A stretch of 64,000 nt of DNA from Dehalococcoidia bacterium (GTDB lineage Bacteria > Chloroflexota > Dehalococcoidia > Bin125), in assembly GCA_965242565.1 (NCBI GenBank), contig OZ251457.1:1935863-1999862 (forward strand), given 5' to 3'. Within the stretch, counting starts at the first letter, position 1, and every line of letters begins with the position of its first letter. The notes below the pieces were generated by a model. The model ran no database searches, was not told the DNA's origin, and saw nothing but the letters and a program-made list of their open reading frames with translations. The position numbers were made by a program, and so were the translations under genes. Shown piece by piece: positions 1-62,965 of the stretch.

Positions 1-300
1 CAAATCTCGGAGCGGGTTAAGCAGCGCCGCCACCGCCAACTGATGACCCTGCTCGAAGCGATCGCCGCCGAGCGCAGCGCCGAGCAGGTCGGCCGCGAGC
101 TCGAAATCCTTGTCGAGTCCGAACCCGGCCAAACCACCGACGACGGCGCGCCCGTCTTCGCGGGCCGCAGCTACCGCGAAGCCCCCGAAGTCGACGGCCT
201 CGTCTTCTGCGACGGCATCGCCGCCCCCGGCGCAATGCCCACCGTCCGCATTACCCAGGCCCTCGGCCACGACCTCTGGGCCACCCCGCTCCACCCCTGA
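1..300 (+). CDS. Radical-SAM methylthiotransferase (RimO/MiaB family), 3' end only (C-terminal TRAM domain); 5'-partial at window edge
   Basis: Frame 1 is open from nt 1 (QISERVKQRRHRQLMTLLEAIAAE...EVDGLVFCDGIAAPGAMPTVRITQALGHDLW). The pattern is typical of the C-terminal TRAM domain of RimO/MiaB enzymes. Stop at 298-300. Confidence 0.55.
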   Translation, partial: QISERVKQRRHRQLMTLLEAIAAERSAEQVGRELEILVESEPGQTTDDGAPVFAGRSYREAPEVDGLVFCDGIAAPGAMPTVRITQALGHDLWATPLHP

Positions 301-560
301 CCCGCCCCCATCCCCCCGTCATTCCCGCCCCCATCCCCCCGTCATTCCCGCCACCCCTTTTCCCGTCATTCCCGCCACCGAGCGGGAATCGCCCCCATCC
401 CACCTCAAACACCCGTCAACCACCCCCTCCGTCGCCCCCGCGAACCACCCTTCCGTCGCCCCAGACTTGATCTGGGGCCCAAACCCAACCCCGTTCGCAG
501 CGCCGGAGACCCAAACCGCCCCCAACGCCCGTCCGCAGGACATCCAGGCACCTCGCCGCC
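300..560. repeat. Intergenic structured-repeat cluster: copies of 'gtcattcccgcc...gagcgggaatcg' hairpin module and a 'cagacttgatctggggcccaaacccaaccccgttcgcagcgc' module (459-510)
   Basis: The same modules recur at 3080-3340, 3757-3865, 6935-7085, 16478-16600, 27290-27545, 37120-37565, 44140-44560 and 62805-62965. Stems are perfect inverted repeats (ttcccgc/gcgggaa; ccccaga/tctgggg). Confidence 0.6.
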
Positions 561-570
561 CCGAACGCCC

Positions 571-867
571 CTACAAATGAATCGTCTCCGTCTCCACCGA
601 CCGCACCTCCGCGTCGATCGACAGCCCCTCCACGAACCGCTGAATGTGCTGCGCCGTCGCGTGGCTCCGCGCCTCAGCGTTGGACACCGTCGCAAACACC
701 AACTCCGCCCGCGTCGGATCATCCAGCTCGCCGACCTCGGCCACCGCGGCGTTGAACCGCTGCCGCACCCGATCCCGCACCCGTCGCACCACCGCCCGCT
801 TCTCCTTCAGCGACGCCGACTCAAACAGCGCCAGCTCCAGCCGCAACACGCAAACCGCGGCGCTCAC
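571..867 (-). CDS. DUF503 (YlxP-like) family protein
   Basis: 98-aa ORF MSAAVCVLRLELALFESASLKEKRAVVRRVRDRV... matches the DUF503 signature (hydrophobic-x-L-x-L-x-L...SLKEKR). It overlaps the scpB stop by 4 nt (operon). Confidence 0.65.
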   Translation of the reverse strand: MSAAVCVLRLELALFESASLKEKRAVVRRVRDRVRQRFNAAVAEVGELDDPTRAELVFATVSNAEARSHATAQHIQRFVEGLSIDAEVRSVETETIHL

Positions 868-1511
868 TCCGACGACCCCTCGACCGGTTCCCCAGCTGGT
901 TCCACAACCGGCTCTTCAACCGCCTCCGACGCCTCCAGCGGCAGCGACGCCTGCTCGGCCGGCGGCGGCACATCCTCCAGCGGCGGCAGCTCCGCCAGAC
1001 CGCTCAGCGCGAAATGATCCAGAAAACGCGGCGTCACGCTCCACAACAGCGGCTGCCCGGGCGCCTCCAGACGCCCCACCGGCTCGATCAAATCCCGCGC
1101 CCGCAGCGTGCGCAGCGCCCCGTCCGCGCCTACCCCGCGCGTCTGCTCGATCGCCCCCCGCGTGATCGGCTGCCGATAGGCGATGATCGCCAGCGTCTCC
1201 AGCGCCGCGCGCGACAGCCGATTCGGCGCCTCCAGCCCCAGCAACCGCTCCACCCAGGGCGCCGCCTCGGGCGCGCTGACCAGCGCCACCGTCGCCCCGT
1301 GCCGCCGCAGCCGGGCGCCCCGCCCCGCCCGCGCTCCCAGCTCCGCCAGCGCCTCCTCCACCGCGTCCGACGAAACCCCGCAGACCCGCGCCAGCAACTG
1401 AATCGTCGGCGGCTGCTCGGCCACCAACAACAGCGCCTCCAGCACCAGCGGCAAATCGTCGGGCCGCTGCGCGCCGGCCGCCGCCGCCGCGGATTCGGTC
1501 GCGTCGCTCAT
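864..1511 (-). CDS. scpB: Segregation and condensation protein B (ScpB)
   Basis: 215 aa with two winged-helix ScpB motifs (LEALLLVAEQPPTIQLLARVCGVS..., LETLAIIAYRQPITRGAIEQTRGV) and an acidic C-terminus. It overlaps the upstream MTTase stop (1508-1511). Confidence 0.8.
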   Translation of the reverse strand: MSDATESAAAAAGAQRPDDLPLVLEALLLVAEQPPTIQLLARVCGVSSDAVEEALAELGARAGRGARLRRHGATVALVSAPEAAPWVERLLGLEAPNRLSRAALETLAIIAYRQPITRGAIEQTRGVGADGALRTLRARDLIEPVGRLEAPGQPLLWSVTPRFLDHFALSGLAELPPLEDVPPPAEQASLPLEASEAVEEPVVEPAGEPVEGSSE

Positions 1512-2875
1512 CGCCCCGCCAACTTCCCAAGCGCGGCCGGCGCGCCCTCCCCGTCCGATGCCAGCCCCACGATCTCCACCGCCGTCAGCCAGTTCAGCGG
1601 CGGCGCTTCCCCCTCCCCGTCCACCAGCCGGTCCGCCAGCCCGTCCACCGGCCAGTCCACCAGCACCGGCGCGTAGGTGTCCGTCAGACCGTGCAGACGC
1701 GCCCCATCGAACGACTCGAAAAGCACCGGCAGCGTCTCGCCCGCCAGCTGCCCGCGAAACCGCGTCGCCTGTTCCACGGCCAGCTCGCGCAGCCGACGCG
1801 CCCGCTCGCGTTTGACCGGCGGCGCGACATCATCCTCCAGCAGCGCCGCGCCGGTGCGCGGGCGCGGCGAGTAAGGGAAAACGTGCATATCGGCGAACGC
1901 CGCCTCGCGGCAGAGCGCGTAGGTCCGCTCGAAATCCTCCTCCGTTTCGCCCGGAAACCCCACAATCACATCCGTCGTGATCGCCGCGCCCGGCGCAGCC
2001 AGTCGAATCCGCTCCAGCGCCTCCAGAAACTGCGCCGCGCTGTAGCGCCGCCGCATCCGACCCAGCACCGCGTCCGACCCGCTCTGCAGCGCCAGATGAA
2101 AATGACGGCAGAGCCGCGCATCGTCCCAGCAGGCCAGCAGCTCGGGCGTGATGTCCTGCGGCTGAATCGACGAATAGCGCAACCGCGGCGCGTCGGTCTC
2201 GCTTAACAGCGTCTCGAGCAGCCGCGCCGCGTTCGTCCCGTCGCCGCGATCGCGCCCATACGCGCCCGGCTGCGTGCCGGTCAGCACCACCTCCTGCACG
2301 CCCTCCGCCACCCGCTCCCGCACCTCCGCCGCCACCTCCGCAATCGGAACCGCGCGCTCCCGCCCCCGCACGCTGGGCACGATGCAGAAGGCGCACACAT
2401 CGTCGCAGCCCTCCTGAATCTTCACGAACGCCCGCGTCCGTCCGCCCGCTCGCCCTGATCCCTCCGCTCGTCCTGCCGCCCCGTTGCCGTCGGCCCGTCC
2501 CAACGCGCGCAGCACCGCCTCCGCCGCGCGCGCCTTCTCCGCATTCGGCACCACCGCAGCCACGCCCAGCTCGACCGCCAGCGCGCCGCCCGCATGCTCC
2601 GTGTAGCAGCCCGTCACCACCACCGGCGCGTTCGGCGTCAACCGCCGCGCCAGACGAATCAGCCGCCGCGCCTTGCGATCCGCCGTATGCGTCACGCTGC
2701 ACGTGTTGATCAGCCAGGCGTCGGCCTCGGCCGGGCGATCCACCGTCACGCAGCCCGCGCCCCGCAGCGCGCGCGCGGCCGCCTCGGTTTCCGCCTGGTT
2801 CAGCTTGCAACCCAGCGTCAGCGCGGCGACGACGGGCGCGCGCCGCTCCGGCGCGCCGCTGCGGAGATCTGCCAC
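1508..2875 (-). CDS. MiaB-like tRNA methylthiotransferase (MtaB-type radical SAM enzyme)
   Basis: N-terminal MTTase domain (LTLGCKLNQAETEAA...INTCSVTHTADRKAR). Radical-SAM CxxxCxxC (EGCDDVCAFCIVP). C-terminal TRAM-like region. The ORF-track N-terminal extension to 3478 runs through a repeat cluster. The likely start is GTG around 2875, possibly further in at about 2833. Confidence 0.7.
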   Translation of the reverse strand: MADLRSGAPERRAPVVAALTLGCKLNQAETEAAARALRGAGCVTVDRPAEADAWLINTCSVTHTADRKARRLIRLARRLTPNAPVVVTGCYTEHAGGALAVELGVAAVVPNAEKARAAEAVLRALGRADGNGAAGRAEGSGRAGGRTRAFVKIQEGCDDVCAFCIVPSVRGRERAVPIAEVAAEVRERVAEGVQEVVLTGTQPGAYGRDRGDGTNAARLLETLLSETDAPRLRYSSIQPQDITPELLACWDDARLCRHFHLALQSGSDAVLGRMRRRYSAAQFLEALERIRLAAPGAAITTDVIVGFPGETEEDFERTYALCREAAFADMHVFPYSPRPRTGAALLEDDVAPPVKRERARRLRELAVEQATRFRGQLAGETLPVLFESFDGARLHGLTDTYAPVLVDWPVDGLADRLVDGEGEAPPLNWLTAVEIVGLASDGEGAPAALGKLAGR

Positions 2876-2949
2876 ATACCGCTCCTTCGCCGCTACGATA
2901 TATCGCAGCCGCGGGCGCGCCGCCCGCGCCCACCGGAAAGCAGCGCCCC

Positions 2950-3076
2950 CATGGTTGAAGTCGGCCTCGCCATCCTCTTTATCGCCATCCTGGTCGGCGC
3001 CGACCGCCGCCGCTACGAGCGCCTCGGCGAGCGCATGCGCGAAGTCGTCGACTGGCTCGACCGCCCCGAGCAATAG
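2950..3076 (+). CDS. Small hypothetical membrane protein (41 aa)
   Basis: ATG at 2950; MVEVGLAILFIAILVGADRRRYERLGERMREVVDWLDRPEQ has one TM helix plus a charged tail. No homology call possible. Confidence 0.3.
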
Positions 3077-3077
3077 C

Positions 3078-3340
3078 CCCACCCACCGCACACCTCCCCC
3101 CGTCGCCCCGCCCTTCCCCGTCACTCCCGCTCCTCCCGTCGCCCCTGCTCCTGTCCGTCTCGCCCCTGTCCCCATTCCACGCCCCGTCCCCGTCCGTCGT
3201 CCCCGCCCCTGTCCGTTGCCCTCGCCCCCGTCCGTTGCCTTCGCCCCCGTCCGTTGCCCCCGACTTGATCGGGGGCCAAACCCAACTCCGTTCGCAGCGC
3301 AAGAGGTCCGAGCCATCCTCCAACGCTCATTCGCAGAGCG
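3078..3340. repeat. Intergenic structured-repeat cluster (pyrimidine-rich degenerate direct repeats 'ccgtccgttgcc' x3 plus the hairpin module 'cccccgacttgatcgggggccaaacccaactccgttcgcagcgc' at 3258-3300)
   Basis: Same repeat family as 300-560. The hairpin stem carries compensatory changes relative to other copies (cccccga/tcggggg versus ccccaga/tctgggg). Confidence 0.6.
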
Positions 3341-3462
3341 CCCGACACGCCGCGCCGCTGGCAATCGCTGTCTGGATTCCTGTGTTCCAGCCGGAGCCAA
3401 ACCACAACCTCGCCACCGCCGCCGCCGCGCACCGCCCCCCACAGCAGCCATAACGACGCCGC

Positions 3463-3492
3463 TTGACAAGCACAGCACTCACGTTCTATGAT
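3463..3492 (+). promoter_or_regulatory. Sigma70-like promoter candidate (TTGACA-18 nt-TATGAT)
   Basis: cTTGACAagcacagcactcacgttcTATGATcgc is followed by gagg and an ATG at 3523. It is a rare AT-rich consensus in a 70% GC context. Confidence 0.3.
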
Positions 3493-3522
3493 CGCACCAC
3501 AACGCTCAGAGAGCGAGGTGCG

Positions 3523-3753
3523 CAAATGACGCTCTCCACCCACACCCGAGGCATCCAGCTGGCGCTCGCGGCCCACCGGCCCCGCCCCGAGCGCGGGCGC
3601 GGCCTTGTCCACCCTCCCTGCCCCGTCTGCGCCGGCCCCACCGCGAGGCATGGGCGCCGCGTCGTCTGCGTCATCTGCGGCCACGGCGCGCAGGAACGCC
3701 CCCGCCAGCCCACTCGCCAACCCGCCCATCACCCCCGCCGCCACCCCAACTGA
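3523..3753 (+). CDS. Small hypothetical zinc-ribbon protein (about 76 aa)
   Basis: MTLSTHTRGIQLALAAHRPRPERGRGLVHPPCPVCAGPTARHGRRVVCVICGHGA... has a CPxC...CxxCGH pattern. It lies downstream of the promoter-like element. Coding status is uncertain. Confidence 0.3.
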   Translation, partial: QMTLSTHTRGIQLALAAHRPRPERGRGLVHPPCPVCAGPTARHGRRVVCVICGHGAQERPRQPTRQPAHHPRRHPN

Positions 3754-3756
3754 TAG

Positions 3757-3865
3757 CCCCACTCCCCACCGCCGTCCGCCATTCCCGCCCCCTTCCGTCA
3801 TTCCCCGCCCCCTTCCGTCATTCCCGCCCCCGAGCGGGAACCCAGACCCGCCCACAGCGCAAGAG
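3757..3865. repeat. Repeat cluster ('ccttccgtcattccc(c)gcc' x3 plus 'cccgagcgggaac' hairpin)
   Basis: Same family as 300-560. Confidence 0.55.
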
Positions 3866-3934
3866 GCGGCAATCCGCCCCAACGGGCGTTCGCCGGAAGC
3901 CCGCCCCAGTGCAGCGCCTTACCCCGACCAAACC

Positions 3935-4080
3935 CGACCACTCCCGAACAAACCCGAACAACGCCGACCAAACCTGACCACGACCGACCACCGCCGGCCA
4001 GGGAAAACACGAAGATCGCCGGAGCACACCACCTGACCACTCCCGAACAAACCCGAACAACGCCGACCAAACCTGACCAC
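3935..4080. repeat. 46-bp perfect direct repeat 'gaccactcccgaacaaacccgaacaacgccgaccaaacctgaccac' (3935-3980 and 4034-4080)
   Basis: Two identical copies about 53 bp apart, ending about 65 bp upstream of the PBP start codon. The related motif 'aaacctgaccac/ctctgaccaac' recurs at 27480-27540 upstream of the RM gene. Confidence 0.6.
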
Positions 4081-4145
4081 CCCCTGCTGTGGCGCACGGC
4101 GCGCGGGCGCGGTACCGTAAGGACGGCGGGTGCGCAGGCATTGCC

Positions 4146-6476
4146 ATGCGAGTTGGTTGGGCGGCGCGGCGAGCAGCACTGCTCGCCGCATTCCTCGCGG
4201 CGCTGATCTCGAGCGCGTGCATCTTCGGCGGCGAGTCGGAGCGCGACCTCTCCGAGTACTTTCCGCAAGCCCAGCAGCAGGCGCAGCAGCAGCCCGACCA
4301 ACCAGCCGCCCCCGCCGCGCAGCAGCAAACCCAGCCCGGCTCAGCGCTGCCGCCGCTGGAGCGGCTCGAAGACACCTCGCGCGCGCCGGTCAGCGCGCTC
4401 GAAGCCGTCCAGCGCTTCTTCCACCTGCTCGCCACCGACCGCCTCGCCGAGGCTTGGACCACCATCAGCGTCGAGGGCAAAGAGCGCTACGACGCGGAGC
4501 GCTTCGCGCAGCGCTACCGCGACATCTGGGCCGAGGCGACGATCCGCGGCTTCAGCTGGGAGATCGTCGAGGGCGACGACGTCAACGCGCCCGCCTTCGA
4601 CGTGATTCTGCGCTACCAGACGACCTTTTTCGGCGAGATCGAGGAGCGCGTCTTCGCTCCCGTCCTGCGCCAGCCTCACTGGGTCGTCGACTGGTCGCCC
4701 AATCTGATCTTCGACGGCCTCGGACCCGAGGGCTTCCTGATCCACACGCTGGTCGAAGTGCCCGAGCGCGGCCGCATCCTCGACCGCAACGGCGAGGTGC
4801 TGGCGGGCGAGGCGCAGGTGGCGATTGTGGGCGTGCATTGGGACGTGGTGACGGACGAGGATTTCGTGATCGATTTCTTCGTGGAGCGGCTGGGCATGGA
4901 TGAGGCGGTGGTGCGCTCGCTGATCTACCAGGACGTTCCGAGTTATCAGTTTCTGCCGGTGGCGGAGTTGCCGATCGGCACGCCCGAGGAGCTGATTGCG
5001 GAGTACGACCAGCTTTCCGAGCACGGCATTCTGGTCAGCCGCGACACGCGGCGCTGGTATCCCCACGGCGAGCTGGCCTCGCATGTCGTCGGCTACCTCC
5101 AGGAGATCAACGCCGAGGAACTGGAGCAGCGCTTCACCGAGGGCTACCGCGCGGGCGACCGGATCGGGCGCGACGGCATCGAGCACTCGTTCGAGAACGC
5201 GCTGGCCGGGCGGCGCGGCGGCTCGCTGGTGATCCTCGACGCGAGCGGGCGGCCGATCCGCGAGATCACCGTCCGCCCCGCCGTGCCCGGCTCCGATGTC
5301 CGCCTCACGCTCGATCTGCGCGTGCAGCAGCTGGCCGAGGCCGCGCTCGGCGAGCAGCCCGGCGCCGCCGTCGCGCTCGATCCCCGCAACGGCCAGATCA
5401 TCGCCATGGCTTCCTATCCGCGCATCGACCCCAACGCCATCACCGACGGCTTCACCCAGGCGGAAGTCGATCTCTACTTCAACGACGAGCGCCAGCCGTT
5501 CATCAACCGCGCGGTCGAACAGGTCTACGCGCCCGGCTCGACCTTCAAGTCGATCACCCTCGCCGCCGCACTCGAAGAAGGCGGCTACGAGGTCAGCGAC
5601 CGGCTCGATTGCCCGGTCTCCTGGATGGGCGTGGGCGACCAGCCGCTGCGCAACTGGAAAGACACCGACCAGGGCTTGATCAGTCTGGCGCGCGCTCTGG
5701 CCGAGTCCTGCAACACCGTCTTCTACGAAATCGGCCTCCAGCTGGACCGCCGCGACGACCGTTTGCTGCCCTCGATCGCGGCCGGTTTCGGCTTCGGCGC
5801 GCCCACCGGCGTGGTCGGGCTGGCCGAGGAATCCGGCGTCAACCCGTCGCCCGCCTGGAAGCGCGCCGCGCTCAACGAGCCCTGGTACACCGGCGACACG
5901 CTCAACACCAGCATCGGCCAGGGCTTCGTCGCCGTCACCCCGCTGCAAATGGCCAACGCCTACGCCGCGCTCGCCACCAGCGGCGTGCTCTTCACGCCCG
6001 TCATCGTCCACTCGATCGAGCCGCGCGGCGCGCCGCCGGAGCCGATCGAGCGCCGCGCGATCAACGTGCTGCCCGTCTCCGCCGAAACACTGAGCCAGCT
6101 CAAGGCCGCCCTGCGCGGGGTCGTCTCCCAGCCCTTCGGCACGGGTTGGGGACCGTTCAACGGCAGCGCCCTGCGTGTCGCCGGCAAGTCGGGCACCGCC
6201 GAAGATCAGGTGATTGACGCCGAAACGATCGCCACCGTCGACGAAGCGCAGCAGGCCGCCCAACAGCAGGCCGGCCAGCAGTCGGAGCAGGAACAGCCGC
6301 CCGAGCAGGTCGGCCCCTTCTTCACCCACGCCTGGTTCGCCGCCTGGGCCAACTACGACGACCCCAGACTGGTCGTGGCGATCGTGCTCGACGACGGCAA
6401 GTCGGGCGCGGACGACGCCGGACCGATCGCCCGTCGCGTGCTGGAAGGCGCAATCCTCACCGGCGCGGTACCGTGA
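4146..6476 (+). CDS. Class B penicillin-binding protein (PBP2-like transpeptidase) with NTF2-like N-terminal domain
   Basis: Signal/TM segment MRVGWAARRAALLAAFLAALISSACIF. Transpeptidase motifs STFK (APGSTFKSITL), SxN (LNTSIGQG) and KSG (GKSGTAE). Q-rich low-complexity linkers. Start ATG 4146 is preferred over 4089. Confidence 0.85.
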   Translation: MRVGWAARRAALLAAFLAALISSACIFGGESERDLSEYFPQAQQQAQQQPDQPAAPAAQQQTQPGSALPPLERLEDTSRAPVSALEAVQRFFHLLATDRLAEAWTTISVEGKERYDAERFAQRYRDIWAEATIRGFSWEIVEGDDVNAPAFDVILRYQTTFFGEIEERVFAPVLRQPHWVVDWSPNLIFDGLGPEGFLIHTLVEVPERGRILDRNGEVLAGEAQVAIVGVHWDVVTDEDFVIDFFVERLGMDEAVVRSLIYQDVPSYQFLPVAELPIGTPEELIAEYDQLSEHGILVSRDTRRWYPHGELASHVVGYLQEINAEELEQRFTEGYRAGDRIGRDGIEHSFENALAGRRGGSLVILDASGRPIREITVRPAVPGSDVRLTLDLRVQQLAEAALGEQPGAAVALDPRNGQIIAMASYPRIDPNAITDGFTQAEVDLYFNDERQPFINRAVEQVYAPGSTFKSITLAAALEEGGYEVSDRLDCPVSWMGVGDQPLRNWKDTDQGLISLARALAESCNTVFYEIGLQLDRRDDRLLPSIAAGFGFGAPTGVVGLAEESGVNPSPAWKRAALNEPWYTGDTLNTSIGQGFVAVTPLQMANAYAALATSGVLFTPVIVHSIEPRGAPPEPIERRAINVLPVSAETLSQLKAALRGVVSQPFGTGWGPFNGSALRVAGKSGTAEDQVIDAETIATVDEAQQAAQQQAGQQSEQEQPPEQVGPFFTHAWFAAWANYDDPRLVVAIVLDDGKSGADDAGPIARRVLEGAILTGAVP

Positions 6477-6480
6477 GCGG

Positions 6481-6906
6481 ATGCAACGCGCACGCTTCCG
6501 CCGCCTGGTCGCCCAGGCGCTCGACGAAATCCCCGACGCGCTCGCCGAGCGGATGGAAAACGTCGTGATCCTCGTTCGCGGCCGTCCCGAGCCCGAAGAC
6601 CTGGCGCTGGTCGGCCTCGGCCCGCGCGACCTGCTGCTCGGCCTCTACAGCGGCCGACCGCTCACCAGCCGCGGCAACTACGGCGAGGTGCTGCCGGACC
6701 GCATCTACATCTACCAGGAGCCGATCGAGACCATCTGCCATTCCGAGCAGGAGATCGTCGAGCAGGTGCGCGAAACCGTGCTGCACGAGGTCGCCCACCA
6801 TTTCGGCATCGACGACGATCGCCTCGACGAAATCGGCATCGCCCCCCGCCAGGACGCCCACATCCAGCCCGAACCAACCCATCCCCGCTACGCCCCGTTC
6901 CTCTAG
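6481..6906 (+). CDS. DUF1025-type zinc metallopeptidase family protein
   Basis: 141-aa product MQRARFRRLVAQALDEIPDALAERMENVVILV... with an HExxH motif (LHEVAHHFGIDDDRLDE). The start is 5 nt after the PBP stop. Confidence 0.65.
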   Translation: MQRARFRRLVAQALDEIPDALAERMENVVILVRGRPEPEDLALVGLGPRDLLLGLYSGRPLTSRGNYGEVLPDRIYIYQEPIETICHSEQEIVEQVRETVLHEVAHHFGIDDDRLDEIGIAPRQDAHIQPEPTHPRYAPFL

Positions 6907-6934
6907 CGCCCGCCGCCCCGCGAGATCGCCGCCA

Positions 6935-7085
6935 CCCCGTGCTCCACCACTGCCACACCCACGCTCCACCACCGTCACACCCGCGCCCCACCTCCGCCAT
7001 GCCCACGCGCCCCACCTCCGTCATGCCCACGCTCACCATTTCCGTCATACCCGCGCTTGCCGCGGGTATCTCGACGCAACCGCCT
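6935..7085. repeat. Repeat cluster: degenerate tandem copies of 'tccaccNccgNcaNacccgcgc' ending in the intact palindromic module 'tccgtcatacccgcgcttgccgcgggtatctcgacgc'
   Basis: Perfect hairpin tacccgcg-cttg-ccgcgggta. The same module occurs at 27340-27375, 37240-37300, 37420-37455, 44275-44310 and 62840-62880. Confidence 0.6.
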
Positions 7086-7103
7086 CAAACGCCGTCTCCT
7101 CGC

Positions 7104-7373
7104 TCAGTCTCGCTCGGGCGCCGCCCGCTCGTAGCCCTCGTAGGCGATCGGTCGCGGTCGCACGCGAATGATCCGGATCTCGCGGCTCTCCCGATCCACC
7201 TCATACAGGACGCGCAAACTGCCCACGCGAATTCGCCACACATCCTCGTACCCCTGAAGCGGCGCGCCGCCCAACACACTGGCTCCGTTGCTCAGCGCGC
7301 GTCGTACTCGCTTCACCTCGCGTCGAGGTCTGGGGCTGAGCTGAGCGAGCTCGCGGTCCGCCTCCTCCGTCAC
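7104..7373 (-). CDS. Type II toxin, RelE/ParE family
   Basis: 89 aa; ...GYEDVWRIRVGSLRVLYEVDRESREIRIIRVRPR is the canonical RelE/ParE C-terminal signature. Confidence 0.75.
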   Translation of the reverse strand: MTEEADRELAQLSPRPRREVKRVRRALSNGASVLGGAPLQGYEDVWRIRVGSLRVLYEVDRESREIRIIRVRPRPIAYEGYERAAPERD

Positions 7374-7402
7374 AACGACGCGCCAGAGCCGATGCTGAGC
7401 CG

Positions 7403-7840
7403 CTATCGTTCTGCCCTGAAGAAATAGTCGGCCCCGAGCAGGTCGTCCATGTCCTCGGGGAACTCCTTATGGACCATGAAGAAGAACTCGCGGCTCTCCG
7501 GCGTGTAAGGGTCGAACACGAAGCGATCCATCTTTTCCAACGCGCCGGGGAGCTTCGCCTCGAGCGCGCGGTTCCACGCCTCTTCCTCCGCATCTTCCAC
7601 TTCCCAGCGGGCTTCAATTTCCTCGGCCGGAATGATCCTGGCGGTTGCCCGCCGCTCGGCCGCCACACGCGCGTCCTCGGCGTCCCATTCCGGCGTGAGG
7701 TCCTCGTCGAAGCCGACCACCTTCATCCACTCGGCGAACTCGTGCTCGCCGATCTTGATGGCGAGCTCAACCCGCTGCCGGCGATCCAGCCCCCGCCACG
7801 CCTCATGCATCAGCTGCTGCGCCTGCTCGTTGGTGACCAT
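7403..7840 (-). CDS. Putative antitoxin partner of RelE (addiction-module-like segment with an acidic C-terminal extension); atypical
   Basis: It ends 30 nt upstream of the RelE start on the same strand. The internal segment EWDAEDARVAAERRATARIIPAEEIEARW resembles the C-terminus of TIGR02574-type addiction-module components. The protein is 145 aa, much longer than usual. Assignment is tentative. Confidence 0.4.
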   Translation of the reverse strand: MVTNEQAQQLMHEAWRGLDRRQRVELAIKIGEHEFAEWMKVVGFDEDLTPEWDAEDARVAAERRATARIIPAEEIEARWEVEDAEEEAWNRALEAKLPGALEKMDRFVFDPYTPESREFFFMVHKEFPEDMDDLLGADYFFRAER

Positions 7841-7870
7841 GCCCGGCTCCTGTTCCCTGCTGCGCCCAAT

Positions 7871-8980
7871 CTATCGCAACAGCGCCCGCCCGACCGCCTC
7901 GGCGACCAGCTCGGGCGCACGCGCCATCGCCTCCTCTACGGGCATCCCCGATGGCGTGGACTGCTCGCCGGACGTCAGGCCCGGCAGCCGCCCGTCGCCC
8001 TCGATCAGACCGCAGACGGCGATGCACGGCTTGCCCGCCGCCTGCGCCAGCAGCGCCACCCCGGCGACCGACTTGCCCCATGCAGATTGCGTGTCCAGCC
8101 GCCCCTCCCCAGTCAGCACCAAATCCGACCGTGCGACCCGCTCGGCCAGCCCGATTGCGTTCGCCACCGCGTCGAAGCCGGAAACGAGTAGCGCCCCGCA
8201 AAACGCGGACAGCCCCGCGGCCAGCCCGCCCGCCGCGCCCCCGCCCGGCAGTTCCGCGATACGCACGCCCAGATCGCGCTCCACGATCCCCGCGTAGTTG
8301 GCCAGCGCGCGATCCAGGTCCGCCACCGCCGCCGCACCCGCGCCCTTCTGCGGCCCGTAGACCGCGCTCGCGCCGTCCGGCCCGATGAGCGGATTCTGCA
8401 CATCGCAGAGCACCGCGATTTCCGTCGCGGCGAGGCGCGAGTCCAATGCCGAGACATCGATCCGCGCCAGCCGCGCCAGCGCCGCGCCGCCAGGCGCGAG
8501 CGGACGCCCCACGTCGTCGAAGAACCGCGCGCCCAGCGCTGCCGCCGCGCCCGCTCCGCCGTCATTCGTCGCGCTGCCGCCCACCCCAATCAGCATCCGC
8601 TCCACCCGCGCCTCCAGCGCGTGCCCGATCAGCTCGCCCACGCCGTGCGTGGAGGCGCGGCGCGGATCCAGCTGCTCCGCACCCAGCAGCGTCAGCCCGG
8701 CCGCCGCCGCCATCTCGATTACCGCCGTGCGACCGTCGTCGATCCGCCCCCAACGCGCGTCAACCGGCGCGCCCAGCGGTCCGGAAACGCGGGCGATCGA
8801 GGTGCGCCCCCGCGCCGCCCGCACGATCGCCTCCACCGTGCCCGGCCCGCCGTCGGCGATCGGCGCGAGATCGAGCTCCGCGGCGGGATGCGCGCTGTGC
8901 GCGGCGTCGGCGAAACAGTCCGTCGCCTCCACCGCCGTCAGGCTGCCCTTGAACTCCTGCGGCGCGATGAGAATCCGCAT
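7871..8980 (-). CDS. glxK: Glycerate kinase
   Basis: MRILIAPQEFKGSLTAVEA... N-terminus, a Gly-rich nucleotide loop, and length 369 aa are typical of GlxK/GarK. Confidence 0.85.
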   Translation of the reverse strand: MRILIAPQEFKGSLTAVEATDCFADAAHSAHPAAELDLAPIADGGPGTVEAIVRAARGRTSIARVSGPLGAPVDARWGRIDDGRTAVIEMAAAAGLTLLGAEQLDPRRASTHGVGELIGHALEARVERMLIGVGGSATNDGGAGAAAALGARFFDDVGRPLAPGGAALARLARIDVSALDSRLAATEIAVLCDVQNPLIGPDGASAVYGPQKGAGAAAVADLDRALANYAGIVERDLGVRIAELPGGGAAGGLAAGLSAFCGALLVSGFDAVANAIGLAERVARSDLVLTGEGRLDTQSAWGKSVAGVALLAQAAGKPCIAVCGLIEGDGRLPGLTSGEQSTPSGMPVEEAMARAPELVAEAVGRALLR

Positions 8981-8996
8981 ACCGACCTCCCGGCGC

Positions 8997-9173
8997 TCAG
9001 CCGAGACCGAGGATGCGGATCCCGCCGATCACGATGATCGCCGCCGCCCAAAGCAGCGCCACCAGCCGAATGCGGCGGTAGAGCGACGTAATCCCGCCCA
9101 GCTTGATGTAGCCGCCCGCCCACAACACGGAGAGCACCAGCACCGCCACCACGAAGATCAGCCCCGCGCTCAT
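8997..9173 (-). CDS. Small hypothetical membrane protein (58 aa)
   Basis: MSAGLIFVVAVLVLSVLWAGGYIKLGGITSLYRRIRLVALLWAAAIIVIGGIRILGLG has two TM helices. It is absent from the ORF track because it is under 60 aa. Confidence 0.3.
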   Translation of the reverse strand: MSAGLIFVVAVLVLSVLWAGGYIKLGGITSLYRRIRLVALLWAAAIIVIGGIRILGLG

Positions 9174-9271
9174 ACCACCCCATCCTACCCGTCGGCCGGT
9201 GCGTGCCGCCGCGCTTGCCTCAACCCCGCATGCTGGCTAGCTTGCGCGTCGCGGGTGCGAACGGCGGCGGC

Positions 9272-12200
9272 ATGATCCACATCACCACGGAACGAGCCCG
9301 CCGCCTGATCGCGCTGGCGATGCTCTGCGCGCTGGCGGCGGTCGTCGCCCTCGCCCTCTCCGGACGCACGGATCCGCTCTATCGGCTGGTCGGCGCGGTT
9401 GACGCGCACGCCTCCGTGACCGTGACAGCCGAAGACGCCGCCGCAATCACCATCCCGCCCAACCCCGACGACGCGGGCGCCGCGATCAGCGCGCGCGTCG
9501 TGCCGCAGCAGGAGCTGCCGCCCGCGCCGGCGCAGTTCCCGGACTACCTGGGGGCGTGGGAGTTCAGCATTGAGGGCGGCATCGATGGTGCGGCGACGCT
9601 GCGCGCGCCGGCACCCGATGTGGACGGCGCATGGACTGTGGTTGTCTGGGTCGACGGCGAGTGGCAGCTCACACCGTTCGCCGTCGAGGGCGGAACGATC
9701 GTCGCTCCGCTCGTACCGCCCGACCTCAATCTCGGGCGGATTAGCCGATGGGCTGGCGCCGTCGTAGGGTGCTTCGGCGATCCGATCAAGTGCGCCGGGG
9801 ACCTGGCGGGCGTCGCGTCCGATTGCATCGCAAACGTCGCGAAATGCACAGTCGCCAGGATCACGGCGCATTGGGAACTGACCAACGCCTTCTGGGAAGC
9901 CGCCGTTGAGGGCACCCGGATCGTGGTCGGTGAGGACTCGGTCGTCTACTCCATCGTCAAAGGTTCAGTTGGCACACTCGTCGAGATCAGCGATGCAGCG
10001 AAAGAGAAGTTCAGGGAGGCCACGACCGATCTGCTGAGCTTCGTGTTAGGCCAGCCTACGCCGATCCGCTGCCGACCCGATGACCGATCGATTATCTACA
10101 CGCCGAGTGCCTGGCAGGAGGTGCTCGACGGCTGCGCCCAGCAGACCTCCGACGGCTCGCTGCTGCGGGTCAAGAACATGCGCCGCTTCTGGGTGCAAGT
10201 CTGCCCCTCCAACACGCGCAATGTCGAGCGACGCGGCGCATTCGATCTTTTCGGTCCGCTCTCCAACTGCCGCGGCGTTGAGGGCGGCACAATGCTCGGC
10301 CCGAGCGCCGAAGCCGCCTGGGATGCTGACGACAACGCCGCGCTCAACGTCAACGCCTACTTCACGCCCCGCGCCGCCCTGATCACGCTCACCGACTGGA
10401 TCCTCTCCGCCGTGGGCATCGGCGACTTCGGCGGCAAGGTCGGCATGCTGCTCAGCGTGCTCGAGTCGCTGCGCTCGATCGACGAAGTCCAGAACGTCAT
10501 CCAGGCGGTCGAGCAGGGCCGGATCGCGGATGCCTTCGAGCGCTTCGCCGCATTGATCCGCAACGAAGTCGCCCGCGGGCGCGTGATCGAACTGCTGGCC
10601 AAATCCGGGATCGTCCAGACACTCGGCGTACATCTCTCGGCCGACGCAATCAAGGCCGCCGTTGGTTGGGCCGCAGTGGTTGAGCTGAGTCTTGATGTCG
10701 CCAACCTTGCAACCCTCCGAACCCGCTCCAACGGCTACGCCGGCTCCGTCTCGTTCCGTTCGCTTCGCGCCGCGACTCCACGCGCCGAACAGGTGCGGCA
10801 GGCGGGCGGCGAAATGGAGCGCGTCGAGCAAACGCGCCGCGCCAGCGACCGCACCGCTGTCGAACCGCCCACCACCGAGCGCGCCGCGCCCGATCACGTG
10901 CTGATCCGGGAGGTTGGCACAATCGACGTCTTCCTCACCCGAATCGCCGCCGGCAAACGCTTCAAGCGCCTGCTGCTCAACCCGGCGGTCTTCGAGAGCT
11001 ACGGCTTCGACTGGCAGTCGGTGCGCGATGTGAGCGCCGAGGAAATTGGCCGCTGGGCGCACAGCAGCCTCGTACGGCTGGAAGGCGATTACCGGGTCTG
11101 GCAGCTCTTCCCCGACGGCGACGAAGGCGAGCGGCGCTGGCTCGACATCACCGCCGAACAGTTCGTCGCAGCCGGCTTCGACTGGGACTCCGTGGCGGAG
11201 ATCAACCGCACCGAGTTCGAGGCCTACGACGAAGGCCGCCCGGTCACCGCCGCCGAACTCGGCCTGGCCGGCGCGCCGCCCACCGCCGGCGGCGCGCTGC
11301 GGTTCGTCGCCGATGTCGGCGACCGCACCCTCACCATCGGGGAGCACTCCGGCAATGTCATCCTCCCCGCGGCCGTCGGCGGTCGCGCGCCCTACACCTA
11401 CCGGCTCTCGCCGCCCTCCGGGATGAGCTTCAACCCCGCAACGCGCCGGTTCGGCGGCATCCCCAACGGGCCCGCCGGCGATCACACGCTCAGCTACCGC
11501 GCAACCGACGGCGTCGGAAATGAGGTTCGCGCCGATTTCGCCATCTCCATCGTCTCAGACTTGCAGCGCGATCCGTCTCCTTCGGCGGGTGGCAGTCGCG
11601 CGCAAGCAGTCACGGTCGGTGATCATCATGCCTGCGCGCTGCTCGACTCGGGCGCGATCGAGTGCTGGGGACGCAACTACTACGGCCAGGCGGACGCGCC
11701 GGGCGGGTCGTTCAGCGCCGTCAGCGCGGGCGGGAGGCACACCTGCGGGCTGCGCACGAGCGGCGCGGTCGAGTGCTGGGGAGACAACTACTACGGCCAG
11801 GCGGACGCGCCGGGCGGGTCGTTCAGCGCCGTTAGCGCGGGCGACTGGCACACCTGCGGGCTGCGCACGAGCGGCGCGGTTGAGTGCTGGGGAAACAACG
11901 ACTCCGGCCAGGCGGACGCGCCGGGCGGGTCGTTCAACGCCGTCAGCGCGGGCGAGTGGCACACCTGCGGGCTGCGCGCGAGCGGCGCGGTCGAGTGCTG
12001 GGGATGGAACCGCTACGGCCGGACGGACGCGCCGGGCGGGTCGTTCAGCGCCGTTAGCGCGGGCGGGTTGCACACCTGCGGGCTGCGCGCGAACGGTGAG
12101 ATCGAGTGCTGGGGATGGAACGACGATGGCCAGACGAACGCGCCGGGCGGAGCGTTCAGCGCCGTCAGCGCGGGCGGGAGCCACACCTGCGGGCTGCGCA

Positions 12201-13306
12201 CCAGCGGCGCGATCGAGTGCTGGGGATACAACGGCTCCGGCCAGGCGGACGCGCCGGGCGGGTCGTTCAGCGCCGTCAGCGCAGGCGGGGACCACACCTG
12301 CGGGCTGCGCGCGAGCGGCGCGATCGAGTGCTGGGGAGACAACGACGACGGCCAGACGGACGCGCCGGGCGGGTCGTTCAACGCCGTCAGCGCGGGTTGG
12401 TGGCACACCTGCGGGCTGCGCACGAGCGGCGCGGTCGAGTGCTGGGGAGACAACTACTACGGCCAGGCGGACGCGCCGGGCGGGTCGTTCAGCGCCGTCA
12501 GCGCGGGCGCGAACCACACCTGCGGGCTGCGCGCGAGCGGCGCGATCGAGTGCTGGGGGGACAACGGCTCCGGCCGGGCGGACGCGCCGGGCGGGTCGTT
12601 CAGCGCCGTCAGCGCGGGCGTGTTCCACACCTGCGGGCTGCGCACGAGCGGCGCGGTCGAGTGCTGGGGAGCCAACCGCTACGGCCAGGCGGACGCGCCG
12701 GGCGGGTCGTTCAGCGCCGTCAGCGCGGGCGAGTGGCACACCTGCGGGCTGCGCGCGAGCGGCGTGATCGAGTGCTGGGGCTACACGTTCGACGGCCAGG
12801 CGCAGCCGCCGGCGGGCAGACACACCGCGATCAGCTCCGGCGCCCACCACGCCTGCGCGCTGAGCGAGGACGGAACCGTCGCCTGCTGGATGATCTACAA
12901 CGGCGCGGCCGATGTCCCCGCCTGGCTGCGCGGAGTGGAGAGCGCCGACGGCGCGATACAGGCGTTCGAGACCGAGCCGGCGCGCGGGCGGATCATCGCC
13001 CGCCGCCTGCCGGATGGCCGCACTGAGTTCGGCTGGCTGCCCGTGGGCGCGGACGATCGCATTCTGCCGCGCTCCCGCTACTTCCCCACCGATGCGCAGC
13101 CCACCCGCTGGCTGCGCTCCAGCCCGATCGAGGTGAGCGGCATCGTGATCGGCCGGATCAGCGCCCGCCTGCTCGCCGACGGGCGAATCGAATTCGCCTT
13201 CACCCCGACCAGCGGCGAGCGCATTCTGCCGCCCTCGCGCTTCTTCCCGGCGGACGCGGCAGTCGGCCGCTGGCTGCGCAGCACGGAGATCGAGCTCAGC
13301 CGCTAG
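9272..13306 (+). CDS. Large secreted RCC1-repeat (beta-propeller-like) protein, paralog of 37604-41381
   Basis: Signal peptide (MIHITTERARRLIALAMLCALAAVVALALSG). Central domain shared with the paralog. About 11 tandem 37-aa repeats GGSFSAVSAGxxHTCGLRxSGAxECWGxNxxGQADAP. Two C-terminal about 50-aa repeats (GRIIARRLPDGRTEFGWLP...RWLRSSPIEVSG). Alternative start at 9203 or 9230. Confidence 0.65.
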   Translation: MIHITTERARRLIALAMLCALAAVVALALSGRTDPLYRLVGAVDAHASVTVTAEDAAAITIPPNPDDAGAAISARVVPQQELPPAPAQFPDYLGAWEFSIEGGIDGAATLRAPAPDVDGAWTVVVWVDGEWQLTPFAVEGGTIVAPLVPPDLNLGRISRWAGAVVGCFGDPIKCAGDLAGVASDCIANVAKCTVARITAHWELTNAFWEAAVEGTRIVVGEDSVVYSIVKGSVGTLVEISDAAKEKFREATTDLLSFVLGQPTPIRCRPDDRSIIYTPSAWQEVLDGCAQQTSDGSLLRVKNMRRFWVQVCPSNTRNVERRGAFDLFGPLSNCRGVEGGTMLGPSAEAAWDADDNAALNVNAYFTPRAALITLTDWILSAVGIGDFGGKVGMLLSVLESLRSIDEVQNVIQAVEQGRIADAFERFAALIRNEVARGRVIELLAKSGIVQTLGVHLSADAIKAAVGWAAVVELSLDVANLATLRTRSNGYAGSVSFRSLRAATPRAEQVRQAGGEMERVEQTRRASDRTAVEPPTTERAAPDHVLIREVGTIDVFLTRIAAGKRFKRLLLNPAVFESYGFDWQSVRDVSAEEIGRWAHSSLVRLEGDYRVWQLFPDGDEGERRWLDITAEQFVAAGFDWDSVAEINRTEFEAYDEGRPVTAAELGLAGAPPTAGGALRFVADVGDRTLTIGEHSGNVILPAAVGGRAPYTYRLSPPSGMSFNPATRRFGGIPNGPAGDHTLSYRATDGVGNEVRADFAISIVSDLQRDPSPSAGGSRAQAVTVGDHHACALLDSGAIECWGRNYYGQADAPGGSFSAVSAGGRHTCGLRTSGAVECWGDNYYGQADAPGGSFSAVSAGDWHTCGLRTSGAVECWGNNDSGQADAPGGSFNAVSAGEWHTCGLRASGAVECWGWNRYGRTDAPGGSFSAVSAGGLHTCGLRANGEIECWGWNDDGQTNAPGGAFSAVSAGGSHTCGLRTSGAIECWGYNGSGQADAPGGSFSAVSAGGDHTCGLRASGAIECWGDNDDGQTDAPGGSFNAVSAGWWHTCGLRTSGAVECWGDNYYGQADAPGGSFSAVSAGANHTCGLRASGAIECWGDNGSGRADAPGGSFSAVSAGVFHTCGLRTSGAVECWGANRYGQADAPGGSFSAVSAGEWHTCGLRASGVIECWGYTFDGQAQPPAGRHTAISSGAHHACALSEDGTVACWMIYNGAADVPAWLRGVESADGAIQAFETEPARGRIIARRLPDGRTEFGWLPVGADDRILPRSRYFPTDAQPTRWLRSSPIEVSGIVIGRISARLLADGRIEFAFTPTSGERILPPSRFFPADAAVGRWLRSTEIELSR
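11580..12790. repeat. Intragenic tandem repeat, period 111 nt x about 11 (encodes the RCC1-like 37-aa units)
   Basis: Near-identical units (...ggcgggtcgttcagcgccgtcagcgcgggcg...cacacctgcgggctgcgc...gagtgctgggg...). They are coding repeats, not a CRISPR array. Confidence 0.8.
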
Positions 13307-13344
13307 ACTGCGCACAAGCCGCGCAGCAGCTGAGAGGGCGCAAC

Positions 13345-14520
<1,176 letters not shown>

Positions 14521-14583
14521 CGCGCCCACCGCCGACGGAACCTTCGCGCGCCTCGCAGCGTTAAGGCGGGCAGGAGGTCCGAC

Positions 14584-16449: not shown

Positions 16450-16477
16450 GGAAGCCCTCCGGCCTGTTCACATCTCC

Positions 16478-16600
16478 CGCCACACCCGCCGCCGCCTTCC
16501 GTCATTCCCGCCCCCGAGCGGGAATCGGCCCCGAACCCGCCTCCGCCGCCCCTTTCGCCGCAACGGCACACCCCACCAAGCCCGCCCAACTTGATAAGCG
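16478..16600. repeat. Repeat cluster ('ccttccgtcattcccgcccccgagcgggaatcggcccc' plus a degenerate 'cccaacttgataagcgcaaacgcagc' module)
   Basis: Same family as 300-560. Confidence 0.55.
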
Positions 16601-16662
16601 CAAACGCAGCCGGCGCGGACACCGGCGGCTCATATACTGCGGCAAGTGGACGGGAGACTTCG

Positions 16663-19110: not shown

Positions 19111-19176
19111 TGCCGGAACCCGCGATTGCCACGGCGGCGCTACAATCAAGACCGGGTGAGCAAGAAGCGGCGACCG

Positions 19177-27224: not shown

Positions 27225-27289
27225 ACGCTCGATTACCGTCTAGCGCCCAGCTGACGTTGACCGCTGTGAAGCTGTCTGCCTGATCCGCA

Positions 27290-27545
27290 GCCACTCCTCC
27301 CCGTCATACCCGCTCCCACACCTCCGCCCTACTCGCTCCCACCTCCGTCATACCCGCGCTTGCCGCGGGTATCTCGACGCAAACAGCACCATCGTCGCGC
27401 CTCACCACCCCCTCCGCCATCCACGCCCTCGACCAAATCGGCGCGACGGAGAGTTGGGCGACGGAGGCGAAGCGCTGCGCGACAACATACCCTGACCACC
27501 CCCTGCCAAACCTGACCAAAGCCAACCACCTCTGACCAACGCGGC
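27290..27545. repeat. Repeat cluster (palindromic 'tccgtcatacccgcgcttgccgcgggtatctcgacgc' module plus 'aaacctgaccaa/ctctgaccaac' motifs)
   Basis: Same family as 6935-7085 and 3935-4080. Confidence 0.55.
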
Positions 27546-37119: not shown

Positions 37120-37565
37120 TGCTCACACTCCCGCCATTCCCGCCCACATCTCCGTCATACCCGCCGCCCCCTTTTCCCGTCATTCCCGCCCCCGAGCGGG
37201 AATCGGCCCCGATACGCCGCCGCCCCCTCCCGTCATACCCGCGCTTGCCGCGGAGCCTGCCCCTGGCTCGAACAGGGGTATCTCGACGCTAACGCACCAA
37301 ACGCCACGAACCGCCCTCACCTCCCCCGCTCCAGCGCCTCTCCATCGCTCACCCGCCCCTTTTCCCGTCATTCCCGCCCCTGAGCGGAAATCGGCCCCAA
37401 CACCCCACCACACCCCCTCCCGTCATACCCGCGCTTGCCGCGGGTATCCCGACGAGAACAGCACCAACGCCGCATCCCGCCACCTGTCCATCATTCCCGT
37501 CCCTTTTCTCACCATTCCCTTCCCCCCGAGCGAGAATCAGCCTCGGCCTGCGCCAGAGCAACGGC
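37120..37565. repeat. Large repeat cluster (several copies of 'catacccgcgcttgccgcgg...tatc(t/c)cgacg' and 'ttttcccgtcattcccgcccc(c/t)gagcgg(g/a)aatcggcccc' modules; one copy carries an inserted secondary hairpin gcccctggctcgaacagggg)
   Basis: Same family as 300-560 and 6935-7085. Confidence 0.6.
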
Positions 37566-44132: not shown

Positions 44133-44139
44133 TCGCGCC

Positions 44140-44560
44140 CCTCGCCCCTCGCCCCTCGCCCCTCGCTCGATCTACCCATCGCCTCAGTCATGCCCACGTT
44201 TGCGTCTCCGCCGTACCTGTGCCTGCGCTCCTGCGGTACCCGCACTTGCATCCCCGTCATACCCGCGCTTGCACTTCCGTCATACCCGCGCTTGCCGCGG
44301 GTATCTCGCCGTGAGTAGCGCCGATTTCCGTAGCGTCCCCTTATCCCGTCCGGCCCCGCACACACGCACCCACTCGTCGCGCCCGACTTGATCGGGCGCC
44401 CAAACCCGCCCCCGTCCGCAGCACAAGGGATCCGAACCATCCCCGACGTCTGTGCGAGGGCATCTCGGTACGCCGCCCCGCCAGCCGTCGTCGTATGGAT
44501 TCCCGCTCAAGGTGGGAATGACGGAGTGGGGAGGCATGACGGAATAACCATCTCCGCCGG
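44140..44560. repeat. Repeat cluster (palindromic 'ccgtcatacccgcgcttgc(a/c)...' modules and 'gcccgacttgatcgggcgcccaaacccgcccccgtccgcagcacaag' at 44379-44430)
   Basis: Same family. This copy of the hairpin module again has compensatory stem changes (gcgcccga/tcgggcgc). Confidence 0.6.
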
Positions 44561-62804: not shown

Positions 62805-62965
62805 CCTCTCCTCCCACCCTCACGTCATTCCCGCGCCGAAGAATCCGTCATACCCGCGCTTGCCGCGGGCATCTCGACGTGACCAGCACCCAACCCCCGC
62901 TCCCAAGATTCCGTCGCCCCAGACTTGATCTGGGGCCCAAACCTAACCCCCCTTCGCAGACCATC
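62805..62965. repeat. Repeat cluster ('cgtcattcccgcgcc', palindromic 'ccgtcatacccgcgcttgccgcgggcatctcgacg', and hairpin module 'ccccagacttgatctggggcccaaacctaacccc' at 62917-62962)
   Basis: Same family; sits in a convergent intergenic region. Confidence 0.6.

Follow-up and report, generated by a model that had tools for sequence, protein, structure and literature searches.

Repeat modules of the window and their gene context

A stretch of 64,000 nucleotides from a Dehalococcoidia bacterium (Chloroflexota; GenBank assembly GCA_965242565.1, contig OZ251457.1, positions 1,935,863 to 1,999,862 of the forward strand), referred to below as the window, has a GC content of ~70% and a GC skew of the + strand that is negative over its entire length. 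Three dispersed repeat modules, A, B, and C, occur between its genes and are present at all nine of the loci that a preliminary description of the sequence had named; with the limits given there, the nine clusters take up ~2.2 kb of the ~9 kb of intergenic DNA, roughly a quarter. These modules are probably three sequence classes of one kind of hairpin repeat, resembling the Neisseria Transformation Sequence (NTS) and its wider group, the Ssn-related motifs (SRMs), similar in character to repetitive extragenic palindromic (REP) elements and targeted by GIY-YIG nucleases of the Ssn family.

The gene map was derived from codon usage, and Pfam was run on the open reading frames (ORFs) flanking the clusters. 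Four of the nine clusters lie between convergent genes (TRAM/DUF503, Zincin_1/unknown, DUF2461/RCC1-repeat protein, and ArgJ/Mo-oxidoreductase) and four between tandem + genes, and the cluster at 3094-3300 lies upstream of the MTTase gene and of both neighbours. This last cluster is placed in a 5', divergent region because, in the long ORF, the UPF0004 domain of the MTTase does not begin until residue 218, and because Prodigal-type calls in related strains give 452 or 535 aa. The suggestion that module C copies sit at convergent gene ends therefore holds in part: three of the four copies are at 3' gene ends, but the copy at 3252-3300 is in the divergent region.

The repeats are far more frequent than chance would predict. 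With at most one mismatch, CGTCATTCCCGC has 22 matches in the window compared with 0.92 expected, a number reached in none of 100 shuffles; 21 of these lie on the + strand, and a single weak match falls within a gene. The left arm of module B, with at most two mismatches, has 21 matches (1.57 expected), and the 3' tail of module C has 2 (0 expected). A census of perfectly paired hairpins in the intergenic DNA of the window (stem 7 bp or longer, loop 3-8 nt) yielded 20, of which 13 belong to modules A, B, or C, and all 13 are on the + strand. In these 13, cgtc directly abuts the stem on its 5' side (cgtt in one case), and a C follows directly 3' in every one.

The design common to the three modules is a 5'-CGTC, a stem of 8-9 bp, a loop of 5-6 nt, and a C, which folds as single-stranded DNA (ssDNA) with -8 to -13 kcal/mol and z-scores of -3 to -5.4. 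The stem of module A, first given as 7 bp, has to be extended to 8 bp (ATTCCCGC/GCGGGAAT). The repeat copies are real, but about half of them are half-sites that consist of the left arm only (13 half, 11 full). In all three modules, the half-sites are arranged in tandem with a period of 19-25 nt, and one full hairpin closes each array at its 3' end. The classes are interleaved in a fixed order, A/B and then C (Table 1).

Table 1. Positions and structure of the repeat modules in the window
Feature	Position	Strand	Description
Module A array	301..390	+	Half-sites 317-329 and 340-352, then full hairpin 364-390
Module A hairpin	364-390	+	CGTC, ATTCCCGC-caccga-GCGGGAAT, C; array period 23, 3.4 copies; z -3.7
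Module C array	412..503	+	Half-sites ccgtcaacc and ccgtcgccccc; full hairpin 454-479; conserved tail to 503
Module C hairpin	454-479	+	CGTC, GCCCCAGA-cttga-TCTGGGGC, C
Module C-type half-site arrays (cluster 3094..3300)	3094-3152, 3182-3251	+	Period 18-19
Full module C hairpin and tail	3252-3277, copy to 3300	+	Stem GCCCCCGA/TCGGGGGC; divergent region upstream of the MTTase gene
Module A array	3759..3842	+	Half-sites 3777-3789 and 3797-3810, then hairpin 3816-3842
Module A hairpin	3816-3842	+	7-bp stem; right arm imperfect (GCGGGAACC)
Module B array	6929..7078	+	3-4 degenerate half-site units 6929-7042, then full hairpin 7043-7078
Module B hairpin	7043-7078	+	CGTC, ATACCCGCG-cttgc-CGCGGGTAT, C; outer CGTC/GACG pairing; z -4.8
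Solitary full module A hairpin	16500..16526	+	
Module B	27302..27381	+	Half-site 27302-27314; full hairpin 27346-27381; z -5.4
Composite cluster	37132..37540	+	Half-sites at 37132 and 37153; full A 37178-37204
Composite cluster, continued	37231-37290	+	Module B copy split by a 23-nt insertion
Composite cluster, continued	37366-37540	+	Imperfect A 37366-37393; full B 37421-37456; degenerate A-like remnant 37487-37540
Composite unit	44237..44525	+	B half-sites (left arm and loop), then full B 44278-44313
Full module C in this unit	44375-44425	+	Stem GCGCCCGA/TCGGGCGC
Inverted A-like hairpin in this unit	44498-44525	-	Sole inverted (REPIN-like) pair of the window
Mixed cluster	62823..62960	+	Half-site 62823-62835; B hairpin 62846-62881, one right-arm mismatch
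Full module C hairpin with tail	62912-62960	+	

Two smaller features lie within or at the edge of these clusters. The 23-nt insertion at 37255-37277 (agcctgcccctggctcgaacagg), which splits a module B copy in its right arm, can itself form a small hairpin (CCCCTG...CAGGGG). A perfect tandem repeat of the 7-mer CGCCCCT, in 4.4 copies at 44136-44166, stands at the head of an SRM cluster and 4 nt past the stop of the GmrSD_C gene.

Correspondence with the targets of Ssn nucleases

The NTS is CGTCATTCCCGCGMAVGCGGGAATCYRG and its variant, NTSvar, is CGTCATACTCGGGNNNNNCCCGAGTATC, and the degenerate SRM has been defined in the same work (Chenal et al., Nat Commun 2025, PMC11893778). Both NTS and NTSvar are targets of SsnA, a 94-aa single-domain GIY-YIG protein that binds the hairpin and cuts that strand only, and only as ssDNA; cleavage depends on the three bases that precede the palindrome on its 5' side and binding on the C that follows it directly, and an ssn gene typically has its own SRMs on both sides (PMC11893778). 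In module A (CGTC-ATTCCCGC-ccccga-GCGGGAAT-C), the stem and the two flanks are those of the NTS, and the loop alone differs, with 6 nt compared with 4. Module B (CGTCATAC-CCGCG-cttgc-CGCGG-GTATC) has the flanks, the 9-bp stem, and the 5-nt loop of NTSvar, and differs from it in the inner bases of the stem. Both of the mapped NTS determinants, namely the three 5' bases and the 3' C, are kept by modules A, B, and C. The general A/B hairpin is widespread, with at least 120 matches in viral contigs (35-72% GC), and those listed are mostly canonical NTS with GCAG or GAAG loops.

The window shows both similarities to the NTS/SRM-Ssn system (PMC11893778) and differences from it. In both, CGTC, a palindrome of 8-9 bp, and a C make up the repeat; the copies are intergenic, numerous, and clustered; a gene for a single-domain GIY-YIG protein of 94-96 aa is bracketed by the repeats (here in sister genomes); and nuclease paralogs each go with a different hairpin variant. 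The loops here, on the other hand, are C-rich and 5-6 nt long, and the published NTS and SRM patterns miss all of the copies. The host here is a high-GC member of the Dehalococcoidia (Chloroflexota), whereas PMC11893778 stresses Pseudomonadati and does not contain the word 'Chloroflexi' in its main text. The three classes in fixed order, the tandem half-site arrays, and the polarity linked to GC skew are further points of difference, and natural transformation has no known link to the repeats here. The Neisseria dRS3 and NIME repeats provide a further comparison: they share the core palindrome ATTCCC...GGGAAT, the clustering between genes and near variable genes, and the targeting by mobile elements. 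dRS3 is ATTCCC-N8-GGGAAT, however, whereas module A is ATTCCC-N10-GGGAAT, and a NIME consists of RS units of 50-150 bp between dRS3 copies, unlike the left-arm half-sites of 19-25 nt seen here.

The gene association comes from related genomes. A scan of species-representative genomes for forms with loops of 6-7 nt gave 112 blocks, mostly from metagenome-assembled genomes (MAGs) of Dehalococcoidia/Chloroflexota. The closest complete chromosome is that of the Dehalococcoidia MAG OZ241849.1, where block L224 is syntenic with positions 5038-16431 of the window at 77-93% identity. At locus L155 of this chromosome lies an ORF of 96 aa that encodes a GIY-YIG domain (Pfam, E 1.8e-14), with identical module B hairpins both upstream and downstream of it; these follow 23-nt half-site units and include inverted copies. 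A GIY-YIG gene is flanked by module B in the same manner at L176, L185, and L235, the last of which is syntenic with L155 at ~89% identity and stands at the same distance from OZ241849.1 as does the window. Paralogs of the GIY-YIG protein at 58-64% identity carry other hairpins (ATTCCCGCG-cgga at L206, ATTCCAGC-gaaa at L406, and, at L407, a canonical NTS whose loop is gcag); the half-site arrays on one side of the L407 gene mirror those on the other. Homologs at 46-55% identity adjoin canonical NTS hairpins in unrelated contigs. A cognate relationship between nuclease and hairpin is indicated chiefly by this pairing of protein variants with hairpin variants.

Module C is present in four copies in the window, with one copy also in L147 and in the L001 ortholog. 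The preliminary description had called the stems of the four copies different and perfectly paired; all are indeed perfectly paired, and three distinct stems occur among them (GCCCCAGA, GCCCCCGA, and GCGCCCGA). Its proposal of selection on the pairing is supported by compensatory Watson-Crick changes in a stem that is 100% paired. If only the window copies are compared, two of the eight pairs show a change in both partners. When two distant copies (L265, 37% GC; L303, 65% GC) are included in the alignment, four of the eight pairs change on both sides, 100% of the cells pair, no change is one-sided, and none of 500 shuffles matches the score, these two copies having been picked because they pair, among 165 pattern matches listed, where ~0.04 such matches are expected by chance. 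The underlying metagenome scan with GACTTGATC-N5-6-CCAAACC gave mostly chance matches among those listed, the only true hairpins being L265 and L303.

A related hairpin, CGTC(AT/AC/GC)CCCGGACTTGATCCGGG(AT/GT/GC)CC, occurs in at least 120 viral contigs, fits the published SRM regular expression, and abuts Ssn homologs in L468 and L509; for these reasons, module C appears to be the local form of a second SRM class that is widespread and has a CTTGA loop. The spacing of ~2.5 kb between C-like hairpins in some viral contigs was also considered as a sign of an insertion sequence (IS), and this was rejected, as the ORFs of L435, a single locus inspected by eye, looked like phage structural genes. 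In three of the module C copies, similarity runs on for ~110 nt and ends at an inverted module A hairpin, which suggests a REPIN-like composite unit of the form SRM(+), C, SRM(-). The arrangement of C and inverted A in the 44237..44525 unit is also present in L147.

Several observations weigh against assigning the modules to the targets of Ssn nucleases. The strict published patterns are unmatched by A, B, and C, and the degenerate SRM regular expression, which as implemented recognizes the NTS, an NTSvar-like sequence, and the CCCGGACTTGATCCGGG class, has 0 matches in the window: the 6-nt loop of module A opens with C where R is required, the loop of module B is without the required W, and in module C the position after GTC, which should be W, is G. 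No GIY-YIG gene was found in the 64-kb window with a motif regular expression applied to its ORFs, and the contigs searched for the ssn gene of the window strain itself came from other samples and were broken at repeats. A cognate gene for module C was not found in this lineage, and an Ssn homolog is adjacent at only 2 of the 120 C-like loci listed. The L155 protein gave nothing useful against NCBIfam, and its presumed place in CDD family cd10448, with homology to N. meningitidis SsnA, is suggested by the Pfam GIY-YIG domain and by a length of 96 aa compared with 94 aa for SsnA; a PDB sequence search with it returned only distant UPF0213 GIY-YIG proteins. Overall, judged from sequence, the modules are most likely SRM-type elements by their design and gene association that lie beyond the published search patterns.

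If the modules are targets of Ssn nucleases, an SRM hairpin would form when the DNA is single-stranded, and a small single-domain GIY-YIG endonuclease of the Ssn family would bind it and cut the strand a few nt 5' of the CGTC; the genes for these nucleases would themselves be bracketed by the same hairpins. By analogy with SsnA of N. meningitidis, only the strand in the CGTCAT form would be cut, and only as ssDNA. The genome to which the window belongs would be expected to have at least one Ssn per class outside the window. The repeats may act as semi-selfish companions of the nuclease genes and in this way spread and persist, and the half-site arrays may lengthen or shorten by slippage at the hairpin. 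The strand polarity of the repeats might come from avoiding exposure of the cleavable strand in replication or from a copying step based on ssDNA.

Alternative explanations and turnover of the arrays

Three possibilities had been offered for the repeats: bidirectional terminators, a family of small structured RNAs, or REP/MITE-like elements. A role as RNA, whether as Rho-independent or bidirectional terminators or as hairpins stabilizing mRNA 3' ends, would agree with the start of most clusters 2-70 nt past a stop codon, with the convergent gene pairs that flank four of the nine, and with the low number of sites in divergent regions of related genomes (19/381). The absence of a T-tract after the hairpins on either strand speaks against it. 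The module tails are C-rich, and in positions 1-20000, which cover five clusters, hairpin-plus-T-tract sites number 4 compared with 8.9 expected, with no terminator-like site inside a cluster. A module C copy and its array also lie in the divergent 5' region, where the cluster 3094-3300 is upstream of both adjacent genes; half-sites are unable to form hairpins; and flanks that are asymmetric (CGTC, C) and kept across phyla, together with a single orientation, would be needless in a symmetric terminator. G-U pairs among the variants number 0. A structured RNA family or a set of cis-regulatory RNA elements would explain the compensatory changes in the module C stem, the conserved tail of ~25 nt after it, and the similarity over ~110 nt in three copies. 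All of the stem changes are Watson-Crick, however, with no G-U intermediates, Rfam run on the whole window found no family at gathering thresholds other than tRNA-Sec, the extended similarity ends in the inverted module A hairpin and so marks a composite repeat unit, strains differ by whole repeat units, and promoter-like sites adjoin none of the elements. On the strength of the absent T-tracts, the gene context, the conserved asymmetric flanks, and the half-sites, both readings fail: a terminator or 3'-end function is unlikely and a structured RNA very improbable. GC-rich hairpins in 3' untranslated regions can slow exonucleases, and protection of mRNA 3' ends is a plausible and possible secondary effect.

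The third option is the closest of those offered, and a structured, dispersed repeat family is present. The resemblance to the NTS/SRM targets, the CGTC-stem-C design common to the modules, the half-site arrays, and the strand polarity had gone unnoticed in the preliminary description. A specific form of it, in which REP/REPIN elements are mobilized by a REP-associated tyrosine transposase (RAYT), has a precedent in that Bertels and colleagues assigned the Neisseria REPINs built from the same 21-mer palindrome (ATTCCCGCGCAGGCGGGAATC) to a Group 2 RAYT. The inverted pair 44278(+)/44525(-) in the window resembles a REPIN, and +/- pairs 80-250 nt apart occur in L126, L128, L147, L155, L166, and L197. 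More generally, the repeats share with the REP/BIME/REPIN-RAYT systems of Proteobacteria short imperfect palindromes, an asymmetric 5' tag, an extragenic location, composite clusters, a link to a flanked gene, and occasional use as an IS target. The flanked gene here, however, encodes a GIY-YIG protein in four Chloroflexota loci and not an HUH/Y1 transposase; a motif regular expression detected no ORF of the latter type either in the window or across ~0.9 Mb of related loci, and a tblastn search of the related loci with an E. coli RAYT sequence as the probe was without a match, which is a weak negative. The 5' GTAG typical of REPs is absent as well, and the copies are mostly direct arrays and singletons rather than alternating, the window containing one inverted pair compared with 12 same-strand hairpins and 13 half-sites. 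Mobilization by a RAYT is consequently regarded as improbable, and targeting by Ssn-family nucleases is preferred.

The arrays differ among closely related strains. In L403, L404, and L405, from strains that are 97-98% identical to the window, ~103 nt of half-site units at 6929-7042 are missing, and cluster 1 of L403 has two left arms compared with three in the window. At L403:2058-3164, orthologous to positions ~356-386 of the window, an IS has inserted into the module A hairpin, in its right arm. This IS encodes an HTH_38 and rve (IS30-like) transposase, and the insertion recalls the targeting of REP and dRS3 by IS elements and phages. On OZ241849.1, the site after the beta-propeller gene (16500-16526 in the window) contains a five-unit array of module B half-sites in place of one module A hairpin, and the site after Zincin_1 is expanded to ~1.3 kb of repeats. 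Because half-site arrays are present around canonical NTS in unrelated contigs (88 half and 293 full), they are taken as a general feature that is more pronounced here.

Other repeat-rich segments were noted in passing. The segment 37115-41574, comprising the SRM cluster 37132-37540 and the gene of an RCC1-repeat protein of ~1200-1400 aa, is a variable island that starts exactly at the DUF2461 stop codon; in the related strain of L001, an AAA_15 ATPase gene takes its place and intergenic repeats are absent. L125 (OZ242948.1, 1128001-1136000) has eight full-hairpin matches in a direct tandem array, most of them spaced by exactly 111 nt, and L177 (OZ241849.1, 2872001-2880000) has ten matches ~83-260 nt apart (two at 131 nt) together with 34 left arms in 8 kb.

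Strand polarity, neighboring features, and implications

The strand bias of the hairpins has a counterpart in base composition. In the window, the skew of the + strand is -0.106 in + genes and -0.153 in - genes; because both are negative, the skew belongs to the strand and not to coding, and composition of the coding strand is excluded as its cause. Across 86 related high-GC blocks, within-gene skew correlates with hairpin orientation (Spearman -0.36, p = 7e-4), and gene orientation is excluded as the cause of the bias (rho 0.07, not significant); the C-rich strand carries 192 hairpin sites and the G-rich strand 94, and with the repeats masked, 32 loci agree with the skew and 12 disagree (p = 0.004). 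Hairpin orientation thus tracks GC skew and not gene direction. On OZ241849.1, clusters are mostly '-' at 0.03-1.34 Mb, where the skew is mostly positive, and mostly '+' at 2.02-2.74 Mb, where it is negative, and the region 2.87-3.18 Mb is off-pattern, with mostly '-' clusters and a weak or negative skew.

This would lead one to a more tentative proposal, which we consider possible although rather less probable than its opposite: SRM hairpins may be polarized along the chromosome, with the Ssn-cleavable strand of CGTCAT form kept on the C-rich strand, the presumed leading-strand template, whatever the direction of the genes, and with one fast-evolving half-site array per hairpin. The proposal presupposes a G-rich leading strand, as is usual. 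The terms lagging, leading strand, skew, and tandem do not occur in the main text of PMC11893778, and a literature search combining dRS3 with strand terms gave no paper containing dRS3 among its top results.

The remaining features of the window are varied. Defense-type genes are plentiful (25757-30642, 43086-44132, and 47450-49717), including HTH/M78 peptidase and DUF4411 genes, a gene for an Eco57I-like protein of 1016 aa, and GmrSD_C (DUF1524), Fic, and Mrr genes, and several are bordered by SRM clusters, comparable to the clustering of NTS around particular Neisseria genes. A perfect palindrome with a 14-bp stem (ATCGCTTTGAGATC-acgt-GATCTCAAAGCGAT) at 47236-47267 lies just after the Amidohydro_2 gene, and two copies of cTGTCAGTGTCA-N7-TGACACT-aactgac at 47312-47332 and 47400-47420 lie upstream of the Fic-domain gene; these repeats look operator-like and unrelated to modules A, B, and C. 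Just upstream of the penicillin-binding-protein gene, at 3922-3990 and 4031-4079, are repeats of CCCGACCAAA in 5-6 copies, with a period of 10 nt; OZ241849.1 has similar 'cccgaacaaa' runs at the orthologous place (L224 2170-2220). A near-consensus sigma-70-type promoter (TTGACA-18-TATGAT, 11/12) at 3463-3492 directly follows the module C cluster and is 34 nt upstream of a small zinc-ribbon-like ORF at 3526-3753. A selenocysteine tRNA gene is encoded at 50840-50937 on the - strand (Rfam 69.7 bits; ARAGORN anticodon TCA). Tandem repeats of 111 nt at 11651-12816 (10.5 copies) and 37644-38038 (3.6 copies) lie in two large genes for RCC1-repeat proteins, and the RCC1-repeat gene at 9242-13306 is missing from the syntenic region of OZ241849.1.

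Recognition of the modules as probable SRMs removes a false lead, as the repeats are read neither as terminators nor as small RNAs, and ties about a quarter of the intergenic DNA of the window to a system described only in 2025. It would extend NTS/SRM-Ssn pairs to high-GC MAGs of the Dehalococcoidia, for some of which the isolate labels suggest a sponge origin, and it indicates that published search patterns miss whole variant classes. Module B with the L155-type enzyme and the variants at L206, L406, and L407 are candidate pairs for new specificities of ssDNA nucleases, and module C, if the polarity proposal is true, would be a third specificity class. The polarity itself would then reflect selection that spares the exposed lagging-strand template from self-cleavage, or else an ssDNA copying and insertion step at the replication fork, and the half-site arrays would be scars of repeated nicking and slippage. 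If they hold genome-wide, the polarity and the half-site arrays would bear on a question raised by PMC11893778, namely the role of Ssn nucleases and their repeats outside naturally transformable Neisseria and the way in which these repeats multiply.

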